Positions 35,895 to 57,869 of a stretch of 59,141 nucleotides of DNA are shown here, one piece after another. How positions within the stretch are numbered: position 1 is the first letter of the stretch; each line of letters starts with the position of its first letter. The translations under genes were made by a program, and so were the position numbers. This stretch comes from Eubacteriales bacterium (lineage in GTDB: Bacteria > Bacillota > Clostridia > Oscillospirales > CAG-272), in contig JBJDZM010000023.1 in assembly GCA_051867975.1 (NCBI GenBank), positions 1 to 59,141 of the forward strand, in the 5' to 3' direction. Below the pieces are notes generated by a model that ran no database searches, was not told where the DNA came from, and saw only the letters and a list, made by a program, of their open reading frames with translations.

Positions 35895-36359
35895 TCAGTT
35901 CATATTTTTCAGCCTGTCGAGCGCGTTTTGAAGAATTATTTGCGCGGAAAGTGTGTCGATAACGTTTTTTCTTTTTTGACCGCGAGTGTCGGTCTCGTTG
36001 AGGTAGCGCGACGCCGCCATGGTCGTCATTCGCTCGTCAAGCATGACTACGGGCATGTTTGGGACACCGCTCTCGGTCATTTTTTCGGAGAGAACGGACG
36101 CAAATTTTTGAGCATGCTCGGCGCGCGGACCGAGCGAGCCGTTCATGTTGACGGGAAGACCTATGACAACACCGCCCGTGATACCCTCGCTCTTGATTAT
36201 CTCGCATATCTTCTCGGCAGTCTTCTGCATACCGCCGACGCTTATCTGCCCGATGCCGGATGCCAAAAGACGAGTTCTGTCGGACACGGCAAGCCCCGTG
36301 CGTTTGTCGCCGAAGTCGACTCCGAGAATTTTACCGCTTGTCGCTTTTATTCTTTGCAT
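35895..36359 (-). CDS. yqgF: YqgF/RuvX pre-16S rRNA nuclease
   Basis: ILGVDFGDKRTGLAVSD, GLPVNMNG, DERMTT, IDTLSA..IL. Confidence 0.93.
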   Translation of the reverse strand: MQRIKATSGKILGVDFGDKRTGLAVSDRTRLLASGIGQISVGGMQKTAEKICEIIKSEGITGGVVIGLPVNMNGSLGPRAEHAQKFASVLSEKMTESGVPNMPVVMLDERMTTMAASRYLNETDTRGQKRKNVIDTLSAQIILQNALDRLKNMN

Positions 36360-36365
36360 TATAAA

Positions 36366-36482
36366 CTCCATTCTGCCGCTTGCGGCAGTGCAAAAAGTAA
36401 TCGGTGAAAATTGCCGAGCAAAATTCGTGCGTGAAACAGGTTGCTTCACCGTTAAACAGAAGTCACTTTCACGCAAATCTCC
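36366..36482 (-). repeat. Dispersed structured intergenic element, copy B
   Basis: About 85% identical by hand alignment to 55249-55365. Confidence 0.85.
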
Positions 36483-50913: not shown

Positions 50914-53349
50914 ATGAAATACGACCATTTATCAGTTGAAAAAAAGTGGCAGGAATATTGGGAGAAAAATGAGACCTTCAAGACCGACGTCTGGGATTTT
51001 TCAAAGCCCAAATTTTACGCGCTTGATATGTTCCCGTATCCGTCCGGAGTGGGACTGCACGCAGGTCACCCCGAGGGATATACCGCCACCGATATAGTTT
51101 CGAGAATGAAGAGAATGCAGGGCTATAATGTTCTTCACCCCATGGGATACGACTCCTTCGGACTTCCTGCAGAGCAGTATGCCGTAACTACGGGAAATCA
51201 CCCCAACGGATTTACGCAGAAAAATATCGCAACCTTTTCAAAACAGCTCAAGGAGCTTGGTTTTGACTACGATTGGAGCAAGATGATAGCTACCAGCGAC
51301 CCGGATTTCTATAAGTGGACTCAGTGGATATTCAAGCAGCTTTATCTTGACGGCTACGCTCAGTATATCGATATGCCGGTGAATTGGTGCGAGGAGCTCG
51401 GAACCGTGCTTTCAAACGACGAGGTCATCGACGGTAAGTCGGAGCGAGGCGGATATCCCGTCGTAAGAAAGAACATGAAGCAGTGGGTAATCAATCAGCC
51501 TGCGTTTGCAGAGGAGCTTTTAGAGGGACTTGACGAGGTAGATTGGCCCGAGTCGACGAAGCTGATGCAGAAGAATTGGATAGGCAAATCTACGGGCGTT
51601 GAGGTCAAATTCAGCATCGTCGGCGGCGGAGAATTTTCCATTTTTACAACTTGCATAGAGACGATATACGGTATCACCTTTATGGTCTTGGCTCCCGACG
51701 GTGACATCGTCAAAGAACTCATGCCGAGAATTCAAAACAGGAATGAGGTTCAAGCGTATATCGACGAGACACTTAAGAAGAACGATATGGACAGAACCGA
51801 GCTTAACAAAACGAAGTCGGGTTGTGAGCTTAAGGGTGTCACCTGTATTAACCCCGTAAACGGTAAGGAAGTCAGAATGTTTATCGGTGATTTCGTTCTT
51901 GCAAACTACGGAACGGGTGCAGTCATGGCTGTTCCTTCGCACGACCAGCGTGACTTTGAATATGCAGTTGCCCACAATATAGACATGATTCAGGTAATCG
52001 ACGGCGACGAGAAGCTCGGCCATGTTGACGTCTCCGAGAAGGCATTTGAGAAGGGCGAGTATCTCGGACGCGGATATAGACTCGTAAACTCCGAGGAATT
52101 TTCGGGACTTACCGTTGAGGAAGCAAAAGAGGCAATCACGCAGAAGCTTGAAAAAATCGGCGTCGCAAAGAGAACTGTAAACTATCACTTCAGAGAGTGG
52201 ATATTTGCAAGACAGCGCTATTGGGGCGAGCCTGTTCCCGTGGTGCACTGCGACGACGGCTCTATCCACGTACTTGACGACGACGAGCTGCCTCTGATCC
52301 TGCCCGAGCTTGAAAATTACAAGGGCGTCAACGGAAAGGCTCCTCTTGAAAATGCCGAAGAGTGGAAGAAGTACGACAAAAACGGTGTCAAGGGAACGAG
52401 AGAGACCTCTACGATGCCGGGTTCGGCAGGCTCCAGCTGGTACTTTTTGCGCTATATAGACCCCCACAACAACGACGAGTTTGCAAATCAGGAGCTTCTC
52501 AAGCATTGGATGCCTGTTGACCTCTATATCGGCGGTCCCGAACACGCGGTAGGACACCTCATGTATTCCAGAATTTGGAACAGATACCTTTACAATAAGG
52601 GCTTGGCTCCGACTAAAGAGCCTTTCAAAAAGCTCGTGCATCAGGGTATGATCCTCGGCGCGAACGGAATAAAGATGGGCAAGCGTTTCCCCGAATTTGT
52701 CGTAAATCCCAGCGAGGTAGTCCGCGAATACGGTGCTGATACTCTCCGTCTTTACGAGATGTTCATGGGTCCTCTTGAAGTTTCAAAGCCTTGGAGCGAC
52801 GCGGGCGTTGAGGGCGCAAGACGATTCCTAAACCGTGTTTGGGCGTTCTTTACAGAACCCGGAAACATCGTTGACGGTGACGTTCCCGCTCTTGATAAAA
52901 TATACCATAAGAGTGTCAAGAAGATCACAGATGACTTTGAGAAGCTCGCCTTCAATACCGCCATCTCGCAGATGATGATATTCGTAAACGCGGTCTACAA
53001 AGAGGGTAAATGTCCAAGAGCTTACGCGGAGGGACTTATCAAGATGCTCTCCTGCATCTGTCCTCATATCGGCGAGGAGATCTGGTCGATACTCGGACAC
53101 GATAACACTATCGCCTATGAAAGCTGGCCTGTATATGATGAGTCAAAGACCGCAGACGACACAGTTGAGGTAATCGTTCAGATAAACGGCAAGCTCAAAG
53201 GAAAGGTAAATGCTCCCGTCGATATGGACAAGGAAGAGCTGCTTGCACTTGCTAAGACCGACGAGAAGGTCGCCTCGGCAATTGAAGGCAAGACGGTTGT
53301 AAAGGAAATCGTGATCCCGAACAAAATCGTAAACATCGTTGTAAAATAA
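50914..53349 (+). CDS. leuS: Leucine--tRNA ligase
   Basis: MFPYPSG.GLHAGH, RQRYWGEP, GGPEHA, KMGKR. Confidence 0.97.
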   Translation: MKYDHLSVEKKWQEYWEKNETFKTDVWDFSKPKFYALDMFPYPSGVGLHAGHPEGYTATDIVSRMKRMQGYNVLHPMGYDSFGLPAEQYAVTTGNHPNGFTQKNIATFSKQLKELGFDYDWSKMIATSDPDFYKWTQWIFKQLYLDGYAQYIDMPVNWCEELGTVLSNDEVIDGKSERGGYPVVRKNMKQWVINQPAFAEELLEGLDEVDWPESTKLMQKNWIGKSTGVEVKFSIVGGGEFSIFTTCIETIYGITFMVLAPDGDIVKELMPRIQNRNEVQAYIDETLKKNDMDRTELNKTKSGCELKGVTCINPVNGKEVRMFIGDFVLANYGTGAVMAVPSHDQRDFEYAVAHNIDMIQVIDGDEKLGHVDVSEKAFEKGEYLGRGYRLVNSEEFSGLTVEEAKEAITQKLEKIGVAKRTVNYHFREWIFARQRYWGEPVPVVHCDDGSIHVLDDDELPLILPELENYKGVNGKAPLENAEEWKKYDKNGVKGTRETSTMPGSAGSSWYFLRYIDPHNNDEFANQELLKHWMPVDLYIGGPEHAVGHLMYSRIWNRYLYNKGLAPTKEPFKKLVHQGMILGANGIKMGKRFPEFVVNPSEVVREYGADTLRLYEMFMGPLEVSKPWSDAGVEGARRFLNRVWAFFTEPGNIVDGDVPALDKIYHKSVKKITDDFEKLAFNTAISQMMIFVNAVYKEGKCPRAYAEGLIKMLSCICPHIGEEIWSILGHDNTIAYESWPVYDESKTADDTVEVIVQINGKLKGKVNAPVDMDKEELLALAKTDEKVASAIEGKTVVKEIVIPNKIVNIVVK

Positions 53350-53435
53350 TTTTCAAAGGTGAACTGCTATTTTAGCCGGTTTATGCGAAAAACTCAAAAA
53401 AATTTTGTGTTTTCGGAAAAAATTGTATTTTCATA

Positions 53436-53464
53436 TTGACAAAACCTAAAGAATAGTGTATAAT
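53436..53464 (+). promoter_or_regulatory. sigma-A promoter of rpsU
   Basis: TTGACA-17 bp-TATAAT. Confidence 0.85.
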
Positions 53465-53526
53465 CATAAGGTATCTGTGAGAAATTCTCACTGCAATCTT
53501 TCAAAGCGAGGGGAGGGAAAAAGAAA

Positions 53527-53703
53527 ATGGCAGAAGTTAAAGTAAAAGACGGCGAGTCTCTTGACAGTGCGCTCCGTCGTTTCAAGCGTCAGTGTGCTCG
53601 TTCGGGAATCCTTGCCGAGCTTCGTAAGAGAGAGCACTACGAAAAGCCCAGCGTAAAGCGTAAGAAGAAATCCGAGGCTGCACGCAAGAGAAAGTACAAA
53701 TAA
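53527..53703 (+). CDS. rpsU: 30S ribosomal protein S21 (below ORF-track cutoff)
   Basis: Hand translation [58 protein letters not shown]. Confidence 0.97.
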
Positions 53704-53723
53704 TTGTATTTTTTGACTATTTG

Positions 53724-53757
53724 AGAGCAGACGGTTGCGAAAGCACCGTCTGCTTTT
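53724..53757 (+). terminator. Terminator after rpsU
   Basis: AGCAGACGGT/ACCGTCTGCT + TTT. Confidence 0.7.
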
Positions 53758-53792
53758 GAATAAATATCAAATTTAGAAAAGAGGACAGTAAA

Positions 53793-54059
53793 ATGGAGTT
53801 ACTTAAGAAAATTTTTCCTTATTCATTTAAGAAATCTGAGGATGTTGCAGGTCTTGTTATCTCGATACTCCTTCACATCGTAGTTGCGATCCTGGCAGGT
53901 GCTGTTATCGGTCTTGCAACCCTTATTGTCGGCTGGATACCGGTCGTGGGCGCGATAATCGGCTGGGTGCTCGGTGTTATCGGCAGCTTGGTCGGATTGT
54001 ACGTCATTGCAGGAATCGTTATCAAGATTCTTGTTTATGCAAAGGTTATAAAGGAATAA
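53793..54059 (+). CDS. Small hypothetical membrane protein
   Basis: GAGGA RBS, two hydrophobic segments, WIPVVG turn. Confidence 0.75.
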   Translation: MELLKKIFPYSFKKSEDVAGLVISILLHIVVAILAGAVIGLATLIVGWIPVVGAIIGWVLGVIGSLVGLYVIAGIVIKILVYAKVIKE

Positions 54060-54074
54060 GAAGCAAATAATCCG

Positions 54075-54117
54075 AAAAATCTTCCGTGACAGTGCAATTT
54101 GTCACGGAAGATTTTTT
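54075..54117 (+). terminator. Intrinsic terminator
   Basis: AAAAATCTTCCGTGACA/TGTCACGGAAGATTTTT. Confidence 0.85.
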
Positions 54118-54226
54118 GTATAAAATTCAATTTATATACATTTTTGTGCATTAACGACAAAAAACATTTGTGCGTGTTGATCATATAGTGCCAATCAACA
54201 AAATTAAAGGTTTTTATGAAAAATCA

Positions 54227-54255
54227 TTGACAATTATGCGAGAAGGTGATACAAT
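54227..54255 (+). promoter_or_regulatory. sigma-A promoter of amino-acid ABC operon
   Basis: TTGACA-17 bp-TACAAT with TG. Confidence 0.75.
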
Positions 54256-54300
54256 GTACTACATCAAAAATAAATATTTATTCATTTCGGAGGCATAAAA

Positions 54301-55191
54301 ATGAAGAAAATAACAGCTATCGTTTTATCACTCATTATGGTGGTATGCGCAGTTTCGGTTTTTGCATCCTGCGATTCGTCGAATAAGGGCTATGCGGCAG
54401 GTGCGGCAGGCATGACCATCAACGCAGAGCGTATGGAAGAGGTCGATTTCTCTCACATCTATTACAGCTCAACTCTCGTAGTCGTTTCCGCTAAAGATAA
54501 GAGTTATTCGAGCGTCGCAGACCTTTCGGGTCTTAAGGTCGGCGTCCAGGAGGGCACGAGCGGTGATCTCATCATCAGCGCAGCAAAGACCGCTGACGGA
54601 CACGAATACACCGAAAAAGATGAAAATGGCAACGAGATAACAAAGACGGTTAAGGTTGACAGTGCAACAGAGGTCAAGCAGTATAAGCAGTACGCTCTGG
54701 CGCTCGCTGACCTTAAGGCAGGCAGAATCGATGCCATTCTCATGGATAAGCTTCCTGCGCAGACTATGCTTGCGGCGGCTGACGGCGCAGGTGCTTATGT
54801 TGCAATTGACGCGACAGACCTTCTGCAAGAGGATTTCGGAATCGCGCTCAAGAAGGGTGATGATAAGTTTGCCGCTATGGTAAATGCCGTTATCGACGAG
54901 TGGGTAGCGGATGGCACGATGGCAAAATATGTTGATTACTACGATGCACTTGCAAAGGGCGAGACACCCAATGCGGGCGACCTTAAGGTCAAGTGGGATT
55001 TCGGAAAGGCAACCGATGTTCTGACGGTTTACACAGAGTCGGGATTTGCTCCCTTCGAGTTCGTCATGAACAGAGAAGTTATAGGTGTTGACATCGCGAT
55101 CATGAGCGAGGTAGCCGAGAGAAACAACATGAAGGTTGTAGTTAAGGACGTTGCGTTTGACACCATCACGACCTGCGTAAAGGATAACTGA
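54301..55191 (+). CDS. Polar amino-acid ABC substrate-binding lipoprotein (family 3), apparently circularly permuted
   Basis: Lipobox FASC; AGMTI.AER..VDFS, VGVQEGT, GRIDA, EDFGIA; canonical N-terminal GFAPFEF...GVDI segment is at the C-terminus. Confidence 0.85.
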   Translation: MKKITAIVLSLIMVVCAVSVFASCDSSNKGYAAGAAGMTINAERMEEVDFSHIYYSSTLVVVSAKDKSYSSVADLSGLKVGVQEGTSGDLIISAAKTADGHEYTEKDENGNEITKTVKVDSATEVKQYKQYALALADLKAGRIDAILMDKLPAQTMLAAADGAGAYVAIDATDLLQEDFGIALKKGDDKFAAMVNAVIDEWVADGTMAKYVDYYDALAKGETPNAGDLKVKWDFGKATDVLTVYTESGFAPFEFVMNREVIGVDIAIMSEVAERNNMKVVVKDVAFDTITTCVKDN

Positions 55192-55248
55192 TTGTAAATG
55201 AAAACAGAAAGAGGGCGTAATGCGCGCCCCCTTTACTGTGTTATTAAG

Positions 55249-55365
55249 GGGATCAGCGTCAAAGTTACTTCTATTTAAAGGTGAATAAGCCTGTTTCACG
55301 CACGAATTTTGCACGGCAAAATTCGCTGATTACTATTTGTGCTGCCGCAGAGCGGCAGAATGGGG
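55249..55365 (+). repeat. Dispersed structured intergenic element, copy A
   Basis: Shares identical 23-mer CCTGTTTCACGCACGAATTTTGC and flanks with 36366-36482 (minus). Confidence 0.85.
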
Positions 55366-55371
55366 ATTAAA

Positions 55372-56130
55372 ATGGATCTGCAAGAATTCTTTTTGTCTGT
55401 ATGGACAAGATTTGACAAGGCGTTTTTAGTCGAGGACCGATGGAAATTATACCTTGAGGGACTCGGAAACACGCTTCTCATCGCCCTGATGGCGACGGTG
55501 ATCGGCGTGGTTTTGGGCATTATTTTCGCAGTAATAAACTACGTCAACAAGAAGACGGGAAAGCTCAAACCTCTTTCCGTCATTGCAAATATATACATAA
55601 CGGTCGTCCGCGGAACTCCTGTCGTGCTTCAGCTTATGATAATGTACTTCGTCGTTTTCGTATCATGGAACTTTGATGTTACAGTCGGTGGCGTGGAGCT
55701 TTTCGACAGCAGTCTGTTGATTGGCGCAATCACCTTCGGACTCAACTCTGCCGCATACGTTGCCGAGATAACGAGAGCGGGATTTGAGGCGGTCGACGAC
55801 GGTCAGCGCGAGGCGGGAAGGTCGCTCGGACTCTCAACCGCGCAGACGATGTGGTATATCATCATTCCGCAGGCAATGCGCAACAGTCTCCCGCCTCTCT
55901 TCAATGAATTTATCACTCTCGTCAAGGAGACCGCGATAGTCGGTTATCTCGGAGTTTACGACCTTGGAAAGATACCGGGACTTATTCAGTCGCGTACGTT
56001 TGACTATCTTTTCCCACTTATTATTGCCGCCGTCATGTATCTGGCGGTCGTCATGATCTTGACCGCGATTCTTCGTGTACTTGAAAAGAAACTTGCAAAG
56101 AGCGACAGGAGGCACCACCATGGAAAATAA
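55372..56130 (+). CDS. Polar amino-acid ABC permease (GlnP/HisM family)
   Basis: [39 protein letters not shown]. Confidence 0.93.
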
Positions 56131-56902
56131 AAATGAAATAAAACCTCTTATCTCTGTAAGAGAGCTTAAAAAATGTTTCGGTAAACTCACGGTGCTTGAC
56201 GGAGTCAGTACAGACATATATCCGGGTGAAAAGGTAGTAATCATAGGTCCTTCGGGCGGAGGGAAAAGTACGTTTTTGCGTTGCCTCAACTGCCTTGAGG
56301 ACCCTACGTCGGGTTCGATATTTTTTGATGACGTCGACATAGCTGACGTGAGGGTGGATATCAATATCCACCGCCAGAACATGGGGATGGTGTTCCAGCA
56401 GTTCAATCTTTTCAACAATCTGACGGTGCTTGAAAACATCATGCTCGCGCCTGAGAAGATAAAGTGGAAAAAGGCGAAAAAGGAAGGAAAGACACGCGCA
56501 GAGTTTCACGCTGAGGTCAAGGAAAACGCGCTGTCCCTGCTTCGCCGCGTGGGACTTGAAGAAAAGGCAAATGTTTATCCGTCAACCTTGTCGGGCGGAC
56601 AGAAGCAGAGAATAGCTATCGTCCGTGCGCTTGCGATGAATCCGAAGGTGATGCTTTTCGACGAGCCGACGAGCGCGCTTGACCCCGAGATGGTGGGCGA
56701 GGTTCTTGCGGTAATGAAGGAGCTTGCAGAGGACGGAATGACAATGGTCTGCGTGACGCATGAGATGGGATTCGCGCGCGAGGTTGCGGACAGAGTCCTC
56801 TTCATCGCGGACGGCAACATCTTAGAGGACGGCACGCCTGCCGAGATATTTGATTCTCCAAAACATCCGAGACTTAAACAGTTCTTAAACAGCATACGTT
56901 AA
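56120..56902 (+). CDS. Polar amino-acid ABC ATPase (GlnQ-like)
   Basis: [35 protein letters not shown]. Confidence 0.95.
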
Positions 56903-56914
56903 ATACAAATGATT

Positions 56915-56947
56915 TCCGACCGCTTATGAGCTTCATAGGCGGTCGGA
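56915..56947. terminator. Terminator-like hairpin between convergent genes
   Basis: TCCGACCGCTTATGA/TCATAGGCGGTCGGA. Confidence 0.7.
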
Positions 56948-56999
56948 CGCTTTGCAGGAAGTATTTAGTTTCTATTGTCGTTTATCTTTTTTTGCAAGG

Positions 57000-57869
57000 T
57001 CAAAGCGCGACAAACATGTCGACAAGTCTGTGTGCCGCGTCTGCCATGTTCTTCATGCCGACCTCGATATTGTCGGGCGTGAAGTCGGAAAGATATGTGT
57101 CGGCTTCAAGGGTGAAATATCCTCGGTAGTCTATCTCCTTTAGAGCTTTGACAACGTCCTCAAAGTCGATATTCAGGGAAAAAGGTATCTGGTGCGAATC
57201 GTGAAGTAGGTCGGTGTCGTGAATGTGAAGCGCCTCGACGTGCTTGCCGAGCGTCAGTAGCATCTCTCGAGGTGACGTGTTGAGTCCTTTCATGGAAGTA
57301 TGACCTATGTCGACGCAGGCAACCAAAAACGGGTCGTTGACTGCATTTATGTGTGCCAAAAAATCATTGTGAAGCGAACAAGCGGCACTTGTTGCGTGTC
57401 CTGCCTCATGGTCCCAGCACCACATATTCTCGGTCGCAATCTTCACACCGTATTCCTTTGCGAAGGGCAAAAGCTCGAAATACATCTCCGCGTTTTTCTC
57501 CGCATTCGCGTAATTGTCGGGGTGGATGACGCAAATCTTCCCGCCTGCAATCGCGGTACATTCGATTGCGCGCCTGAGGTAGTCGAACATGCCCGGAGCG
57601 TACGATGGGAAGGGCGCGTGCGACTGATTGCAGTGGATACCGTTATCCTCGCCGACCTTGCGGAGTTTTTTTGCGAAGGCGGCGTAATTATCAGATGCCA
57701 GCGGATGGTTTGATTCGACGAGCGTTTTGGTCGAGTGGTTGTATATTGCCATATTGAACATGGAAAAATCCCATGCGTCAAATCCGACCTTGGCGTATAG
57801 CTCGATAGCCTTTTCCTCGCCAATATGACGTGCGGCAGAGCCGATTTCAGTGGACGTTAACGGTCTCAT
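57000..57869 (-). CDS. Sugar phosphate isomerase/epimerase (xylose isomerase-like TIM barrel)
   Basis: QSHAPF, VIHP, ATENM, DIGH, LHIHD, DSH, TLE; GGGAGG RBS. Confidence 0.85.
   Translation of the reverse strand: MRPLTSTEIGSAARHIGEEKAIELYAKVGFDAWDFSMFNMAIYNHSTKTLVESNHPLASDNYAAFAKKLRKVGEDNGIHCNQSHAPFPSYAPGMFDYLRRAIECTAIAGGKICVIHPDNYANAEKNAEMYFELLPFAKEYGVKIATENMWCWDHEAGHATSAACSLHNDFLAHINAVNDPFLVACVDIGHTSMKGLNTSPREMLLTLGKHVEALHIHDTDLLHDSHQIPFSLNIDFEDVVKALKEIDYRGYFTLEADTYLSDFTPDNIEVGMKNMADAAHRLVDMFVAL

Follow-up and report, generated by a model that had tools for sequence, protein, structure and literature searches.

A circularly permuted family-3 amino-acid binding lipoprotein in Clostridia, most likely derived from another permutant

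The window analysed here is a stretch of DNA of 59,141 nucleotides (contig JBJDZM010000023.1, positions 1 to 59,141) from an Eubacteriales bacterium of the CAG-272 lineage of Oscillospirales. The gene at 54301..55191 on the forward strand encodes a family-3 solute-binding protein (PF00497, SBP_bac_3) whose segments stand in a circularly permuted order; its coding sequence (CDS) comprises 296 codons and a stop, with no internal stop. The gene product is probably the lipid-anchored receptor of a three-gene polar-amino-acid ATP-binding cassette (ABC) importer, with a permutation of the type II, cluster F fold, here called CP3, that arose once from another permuted order, CP1. Five segments are distinguished by their residue numbers in the window protein: M (30-62, with GAAGMTINAER..VDFS), L2 (63-162, lobe II), C50 (166-214), LK (215-237, the linker) and N57 (238-296, with GFAPFEF). 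CP3 is the order found in the window, M-L2-C50-LK-N57; CP1 is C50-LK-N57-M-L2, and a further order, CP2-like, is L2-C50-N57-M.

The match of PF00497 to the 296-amino-acid protein scores 76 bits against a cut-off of 26.4 and is split into two stretches, residues 33-214 (54397-54942) aligning with profile positions 61-129 and residues 241-296 (55021-55188) with profile positions 1-57 of 132. Searched on the DNA, both pieces exceed the cut-off separately, with 46.7 and 31 bits. The canonical colinear order of N-terminal piece, GMTI motif, lobe II and C-terminal helices is absent, as profile positions 61-129 precede 1-57; homology to the family holds while topology differs, and the mismatch in order is the permutation itself. 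The TIGR01096 model aligns through its positions 84-246 of 250 with residues 31-211. The nearest NCBIfam models (Lys/Arg/Orn, GlnH, cystine and ArtI/J) all score far below their cut-offs for the window protein, and scans against Pfam and NCBIfam gave no MglB-type family. A first-pass annotation, made from the letters of the sequence, had described a permutant that starts at the GMTI motif directly after the lipobox Cys, passes a linker and ends in the missing N-terminal part, with neither overlap nor obvious gap. The two swapped rather than colinear profile matches agree with this description: the chain begins at GAAGMTINAER..VDFS, the linker before the N-terminal piece measures about 23 residues, and profile positions 58-60 are the sole part unaccounted for between the two pieces.

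Along the forward strand the chain is arranged as follows. The N-terminus, read by eye, consists of MKK, a hydrophobic stretch and a lipobox-like FASC, and is taken as a signal peptide (54301..54372) whose Cys24 (codon 54370-54372), invariant in all ten CP3 proteins, is presumed to be lipidated. Block B (residues 28-162; 54382..54786), delimited by the Pfam and TIGR01096 alignments and by AlphaFold2 (AF2) prediction, contains the third strand of lobe I with GAAGMTINAER..VDFS, the first hinge strand and lobe II; in the relatives this block sits after block A. The B-to-A junction loop (residues 158-166, AAADGAGAY; 54772..54798) is unbroken in the window protein and in canonical proteins, and in CP1 relatives the chain begins and ends there. 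C50 (54796..54942), which the TIGR01096 alignment follows up to profile position 246 of 250, supplies the last strand of lobe II, the second hinge strand and the two canonical C-terminal helices, predicted by AF2 as strands at 166-170 and 177-183 and helices at 188-204 and 206-218. The linker of about 23 residues (54943..55011) connects what are the C- and N-termini of canonical proteins; CP1 relatives have it too, and it is predicted as coil at high confidence. N57 (55012..55188), corresponding to Pfam profile positions 1-57, is the first strand-helix-strand-helix unit of lobe I with the GFAPFEF loop, now C-terminal and ending in CVKDN; its predicted strands lie at 239-245 and 277-283 and its helices at 263-274 and 286-295, with a predicted local distance difference test score (pLDDT) of 92-98.

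The permuted order is confirmed as real and lies far beyond chance. A homologue search returned 820 proteins at E<=1e-10, and the best 120, all 232-320 amino acids long, were examined by segment-wise BLAST. Nine of them (P0002-P0010) are in CP3 order, with 74-96% identity and 99-100% query coverage, and the remaining 111 are in CP1 order. The nine represent further clusters at 90% identity and stem from several source collections; the 90% cluster to which the window protein belongs counts 55 members, also from several sources, and 13 of the 15 members listed are 296 amino acids long. Contigs from DNA runs of three different studies (X1, X2 and X4) cross the junctions as well. That of X1 (1830 nt) spans 54101-55246 across all three junctions with 43 differences and 10 gaps; third codon positions account, by our own count, for 16 of the 22 listed differences inside the CDS. 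That of X4 (940 nt) spans 54134-54918, and contigs of X2 bridge the N-terminal and B-to-A junctions. No run in the search held half or more of the sampled words, the best reaching 0.26. The first-pass annotation had suggested looking for homologues of the same order in independent genomes and mapping reads across the gene; nine further clusters now provide the former, and the bridging contigs give no indication of misassembly.

Close relatives at the same locus, with 62-82% identity to the window protein, carry a different permutation. In genomes of the same genus the query matches in two pieces, residues 166-295 and then 28-162, within one open reading frame (ORF) of about 295-330 amino acids. 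Ten of the 39 genus genomes contain a close homologue at E<=1e-30, in CP3 order in genome G000 only and in CP1 order in the other nine. In the family sample of 401 genomes, 14 contain a homologue at E<=1e-40, distributed amongst seven genera; CP3 is again found in G000 only, 12 genomes have both pieces in CP1 order and one has one piece only. The 63 loci on species-representative contigs comprise no CP3, 41 CP1 and one CP2-like form, the rest being canonical or partial. An exhaustive search of representatives gave 3961 matches at E<=0.001, the best 150 of which were sorted by chain order: 76 are canonical with all four segments, 15 are CP1-like with 3 more partial, and 8 are CP2-like.

Other arrangements also occur among the relatives. 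P0250 (283 amino acids, 29% identity) has the CP3 cut site, yet belongs to the CP2-like subfamily, and is a possible independent origin of this cut site. P0147 (284 amino acids) shows a fourth cut site, inside N57, with the strand and the PYEF loop at the very C-terminus. Tandem multi-domain relatives are numerous (for example P0129, P0134-P0136 and P0148), and more distant subfamilies include 1.5-domain forms, namely P0173 (387 amino acids, L2-C50-N57-M-L2-C50) and P0146. Close relatives in canonical order (P0123, with 64% identity, P0130, P0131 and P0137) carry the linker sequence (..GLK.xWN[CV]) at their C-terminal end, as a tail. In P0285-P0288 (520-541 amino acids, 50-57% identity to the window protein) a CP1 domain is fused through its lobe II end to an ABC permease; P0287, the sole sequence printed among the four, has an N-terminal hydrophobic segment without Cys. 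Adjacent binding-protein genes on the same strand were seen at loci L040 (1981-2841 and 2932-3822) and L061 (1938-2783 and 2944-3846), the second gene being in CP1 order; in-frame fusion could arise from such pairs. Annotation pipelines label proteins of this kind 'transporter substrate-binding domain-containing protein', and sequence aligners give only half coverage between orthologues.

Phylogenetic analysis was performed on single-domain proteins cut into N57, M+L2 and C50 at hidden Markov model (HMM) boundaries and re-ordered to the canonical arrangement. In the FastTree tree of 209 rows, the ten CP3 rows form one clade with a support of 0.992, many nodes deep in CP1. A quick IQ-TREE analysis of 69 rows, made up of every third of the 111 close CP1 proteins, the 10 CP3, 12 deeper CP1, 4 canonical-with-tail proteins and 6 canonical outgroups, gives CP3 a Shimodaira-Hasegawa-like approximate likelihood ratio (SH-aLRT) value of 98 and places it inside starred sets of 28, 37, 48, 51 and 56 rows otherwise holding CP1. 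The canonical-with-tail proteins fall inside CP1 in both trees, which suggests that their order reverted and that the linker stayed behind as a scar. Every other orthologue found, in the genus as in the family, has the CP1 form. These observations amend the first-pass annotation in one respect: the immediate ancestor was most likely another circular permutant, CP1, and not a canonical protein. The window protein would thus be a permutant of a permutant, and CP3 most likely arose once.

Structure prediction and substitution patterns support the reading of the window protein as a permutant that is conserved, is under selection and folds well. With an alignment of 150 rows of CP3, CP2-like, tandem, canonical and CP1 proteins, in which the relocated piece is covered by about 27-33 rows, AF2 yields a mean pLDDT of 94.5 and a predicted template modelling score (pTM) of 0.87, with the linker and N57 at 92-98. 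Apart from one additional beta-hairpin in lobe II, the predicted secondary-structure string is that of a type II binding protein. In a Foldseek search against the PDB the top match is 6H30 (the GlnPQ SBD1-SBD2 tandem), followed by 4YMX, engineered and native GlnBP, ArgBP and AncQR; matches to family members have E-values of 1e-12 to 1e-10 over about 170-210 aligned columns. Foldseek aligns sequentially, so coverage is limited to about 170-210 columns and the relocated piece cannot be placed by it. Against 10 CP1 orthologues, the proportion of nonsynonymous differences (pN) is 0.10-0.24 and that of synonymous differences (pS) is 0.61-0.85 in both halves of the gene; the synonymous rate (dS) is saturated, and the ratio of nonsynonymous to synonymous rates (dN/dS) is 0.06-0.12 where computable. 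The ten CP3 proteins have a mean column identity of 83%, and the motifs GAAGMTI..ER, VGVQEGTSG, MDKLP and GFAPFEF, invariant in 10 of 10, align with the corresponding motifs of solved amino-acid binders. A functional permutant with a relocated anchor, as proposed in the first-pass annotation, is in keeping with the conservation across clusters, with pN below pS in both halves and with the confident AF2 prediction, whose secondary structure is the expected one. The extra hairpin corresponds to a clade-specific insertion in lobe II (54589-54669, residues about 97-123), with predicted strands at 101-106 and 112-117; of the 150 relatives in the alignment, only about 52-66 have its columns filled.

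The most likely route from CP1 to CP3 would comprise three steps: the mature CP1 coding region would have been duplicated head-to-tail and in frame, the front half of the first copy would then have been lost in frame, and the back half of the second copy would have been lost last. Every intermediate on this route would keep one complete domain. The B-to-A loop of CP3 proteins (AAAD-GAGA-Y in the window) resembles the C-terminal tail of CP1 proteins joined to the CP1 spacer after the Cys, which is what a head-to-tail in-frame duplication of CP1 would yield. In 8 of the 10 CP3 proteins, 7 residues separate the lipobox Cys from the [AS]xGAAG strand; the conserved internal Cys within the CVK motif is likewise 7 residues away from this strand in all 44 of those CP1 proteins, among 111 examined, that match the Cys-containing pattern. 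An in-frame deletion from Cys to Cys would fit these matching spacers; given a single origin of CP3, the spacing counts as one coincidence and not as eight. The final two residues (DN or GN) are compatible with either the old CP1 C-terminus or the CVK-G-H loop, and the hairpin in the 3' flank follows right after the stop as in CP1 loci, which would mean that the back half of the second copy was lost cleanly. A microhomology at the breakpoint, CCTGCG, shared by the codon of the window's lipobox Cys and that of the CVK Cys, was considered and set aside, being too short, in sequences too diverged, to carry weight.

Several observations weigh against parts of this account and are best considered together with the alternative explanations. 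CP3 order is found in no species-representative genome besides G000 (39 genus genomes, 401 of the family sample and 63 loci), and the genome assembly is fragmented (120 contigs, 89.9% complete), as would be expected if a tandem gene for two domains had been mis-joined or collapsed in assembly, or strains combined into a chimera, and no such protein existed. This is extremely improbable and already effectively refuted by nine other clusters from several sources with 74-96% identity, by the 55 members of the window's cluster and by the contigs of three studies; moreover, every junction keeps the reading frame, and at the B-to-A junction the chain is connected as in canonical proteins. From the RNA run X20 came a single metatranscriptome contig of 174 nt over 55101-55274, together with pieces on a repeat, and this is not evidence of transcription. 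A first AF2 run with the 10 CP3 rows only was unusable (pLDDT 48.1), and the packing of N57 against lobe I is predicted from AF2 confidence alone. The gene might be a decaying remnant of a tandem binding-domain gene, non-functional and on its way to loss, with which the short anchor spacer of 7 residues and the dispersed repeat of about 123 nt between it and the permease gene in this strain would agree; such decay is highly improbable for an ORF that is intact in ten clusters at 83% mean column identity with invariant binding-site motifs, has pN far below pS and a confident AF2 fold, and is the sole family-3 binding-protein gene found in its genome, beside intact permease and ATPase genes. Thermotoga maritima ArgBP dimerises through a swap of its C-terminal helix, and several of its entries are among the PDB matches. 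It could be supposed that residues 238-296, at the end of a long linker of about 23 residues, complete lobe I of a neighbouring molecule and give a domain-swapped dimer or chain. This is very unlikely in view of the compact and confident AF2 monomer (pTM 0.87, with a pLDDT of 92-98 for the linker and the relocated piece) and of a linker that is kept in CP1, CP3 and canonical-with-tail forms alike.

The direction of change and the route have contrary evidence of their own. An approximately unbiased (AU) test in which the 37 sampled close CP1 rows were held together, making CP3 their sister instead of nested among them, does not reject this grouping (p 0.156); when the 4 canonical-with-tail and 3 long-branched CP1 rows were dropped and 46 CP1 rows were held together against CP3 and 6 outgroups, the grouping is rejected (delta lnL 74, p-AU 0.0059). 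Both groupings were named after the tree had been seen, and the trees were built on segments cut and re-ordered at HMM boundaries of our own. The unrejected sister relationship, together with a B-to-A connection in CP3 that is the canonical one and a root not inferred by the method, would suit the reverse polarity, with CP3 older and CP1 derived, or an independent origin of both from a tandem ancestor. Such scenarios are unlikely, as CP1 lineages branch deeper than and around CP3 in two trees, 46 CP1 rows cannot be held together in the second test, and CP1 occurs in seven genera of the family sample against G000 only for CP3. The derivation of CP3 from CP1 remains quite probable, and is put no higher because the groups were named post hoc and the root rests on outgroups. 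As to the route, no duplicated or 1.5-domain intermediate within the CP1/CP3 clade is present among the best 120 of the 820 homologues, and a search for longer forms (519-2000 amino acids) gave no duplicated intermediate, only 4 fusions of a CP1 domain with a permease; the route is consequently a model and not a finding. Duplication followed by trimming, which the first-pass annotation had offered as a possibility, receives indirect support only: tandem and 1.5-domain relatives exist in distant subfamilies (P0129, P0173 and P0146) and support such a route, and the CP1/CP3 clade itself has furnished no intermediate.

In the CP3 receptor the lipidated Cys would be followed by 7 residues and then by the third strand of lobe I, from which the chain would pass through lobe II, the C-terminal helices and the linker of about 23 residues to the N-terminal piece. 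The relocated strand-helix-strand-helix unit would pack back to complete lobe I, and the protein should therefore bind and deliver an amino acid like a canonical receptor. The point of tethering would lie in lobe I in CP3 and on a lobe II strand in CP1, and in P0285-P0288 the permease is joined to the lobe II end of the CP1 domain; from these differences the transporter seems to tolerate several tether points. We tentatively suggest, at somewhat less than even likelihood, that this clade of family-3 binding lipoproteins, from uncultured gut Clostridia, is a hot-spot of serial permutation, with at least three orders at >60% identity on one conserved operon scaffold and a lipid-anchor Cys maybe recruited at the position of the internal CVK Cys. 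The three orders may be CP1, CP3 and a 'reverted' canonical form with the former linker as its C-terminal tail; in more distant relatives the number of cut sites may rise by at least two, and the CP3 site may have come into use a second time, independently, in P0250. If this is true, the series would offer natural, nearly isogenic proteins for measuring the effects of tether and termini on folding and transporter docking.

Natural circular permutants are rare windows on the evolution of protein topology, and the type II amino-acid binding fold is heavily studied and serves as a scaffold of glutamate and other biosensors. Canonical cluster F binders (GlnBP 1WDN/1GGG, ArtJ 2PVU, T. maritima ArgBP 4PRS, AncQR 4ZV1 and 4YMX) have the same Pfam family, predicted bilobed fold and operon type as the window protein and share with it the motifs AGMTI..ER..VDFS, G.Q.GT, the lobe II D and PFEF. 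Unlike them, the window protein carries the first 57 or so canonical residues at the C-terminus behind the linker of about 23 residues, has its presumed lipid anchor just before the third strand of lobe I and possesses an extra beta-hairpin in lobe II. The best PDB match both by sequence (5.9e-25) and by fold is the SBD1-SBD2 tandem of Lactococcus lactis GlnPQ (6H30), in which residues 35-287 of the window protein are colinear with residues 68-285 across the boundary between the two domains; such a tandem is the arrangement from which a duplicate-and-trim permutant would start. The two differ in that 6H30 comprises two complete domains fused to a permease, whereas the window protein contains each segment once and has to form a closed domain by itself; the query-normalised template modelling score (TMq) of 0.40 and root-mean-square deviation (rmsd) of 19 Å are what a different packing of the relocated piece would lead one to expect. 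Periplasmic binding proteins have reportedly been circularly permuted by engineering to serve as fluorescent and Förster resonance energy transfer (FRET) sensors, so that the fold class is said to tolerate new termini; those are man-made, and the window protein is natural.

Among ABC binding proteins, the one published natural permutant found is Tp0684 (TpMglB-2) of Treponema pallidum, a lipoprotein that binds ligand and changes conformation, according to the parts of the report consulted (PMC4990184). That report suggests naming permuted forms as a subclass of their own, describes the homologues as mostly tethered proteins and calls the sequence similarity of the moved part poor (PMC4990184). 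As far as that account goes, TpMglB-2 is a Type I, cluster B sugar binder with another cut site, whereas the window protein is of PF00497 type II, homology of its moved part is clear, and several permutations are found side by side at >60% identity. Membership of the window protein in Type Ic/Cluster Bc, founded by TpMglB-2, was considered and rejected owing to its PF00497 type II assignment, and TpMglB-2 is an analogue only. In the portions seen of another paper (PMC8694067), permutation is mentioned only in general terms. The literature search, which covered the full text of articles, gave no description of a family-3 binding protein that is circularly permuted in nature. As a record of how chain order is rewired, the family makes it possible to test with natural sequences both the duplicate-and-trim model and how far the transporter tolerates tethering by lobe I or lobe II, and its natural cut sites are evolution-tested positions for sensor engineering.

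The surroundings of the gene are those of a polar amino-acid transporter (PAAT) operon. Upstream on the forward strand lie a promoter-like site of the sigma-70/sigma-A type (54227..54255: TTGACA, a spacer of 17 nt and TACAAT, with TG before the -10 hexamer), which matches the consensus at 11 of 12 positions and is assigned by this match only, and a ribosome-binding site read from the sequence (GGAGG, 54289..54293), 7 nt before the ATG. Downstream, a GC-rich hairpin at 55213..55229, about 20 nt after the stop codon, stands at the same distance from the stop as in CP1 loci. The genes for an ABC permease (BPD_transp_1, 4.4e-26; 55372..56130) and an ABC ATPase (ABC_tran, 2e-36; 56120..56902) follow directly on the same strand and are intact, so that the PAAT-type partner genes are present; the permease start at ATG 55372 is deduced from the MxLQEFF start of relatives, and the ATPase start at ATG 56120 is likewise a deduced one. 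The promoter, permease and ATPase, which had looked intact on first reading, thus appear so here. The DNA of the promoter and signal peptide and that of the permease and ATPase genes are colinear with the loci of same-genus relatives, and only the two internal blocks are swapped. The family HMM, run over the whole 89.9%-complete genome, finds only this PF00497 gene. An Rfam scan of 53300-57100 gave no match at E<=1.

A dispersed repeat of about 123-125 nt lies between the binding-protein and permease genes at 55247-55369, with a second copy in the window at 36357-36482 on the minus strand and 40 matches of 73-100% identity across the 1.8-Mb genome. The contigs of related strains (runs X1, X2 and X4) skip 55247-55369 and have 21 other letters there, and metagenome depth over the repeat is 200-400 vs about 8 alongside. 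It matches no Rfam family and may be an element similar to miniature inverted-repeat transposable elements (MITE) or repetitive extragenic palindromic (REP) sequences, or an unknown small RNA. The neighbourhood upstream of the transporter promoter is not common to the loci of relatives. A strong 17-bp hairpin with a T-run at 54075-54116, placed on the minus strand by the scan, lies just upstream of this promoter, and is preceded by an ORF on the plus strand (53793-54059) encoding 88 very hydrophobic amino acids without a Pfam match. Further upstream, from reading of their translations, are ORFs that we take to be leuS-like (50914-53349) and S21-like (53527-53703).

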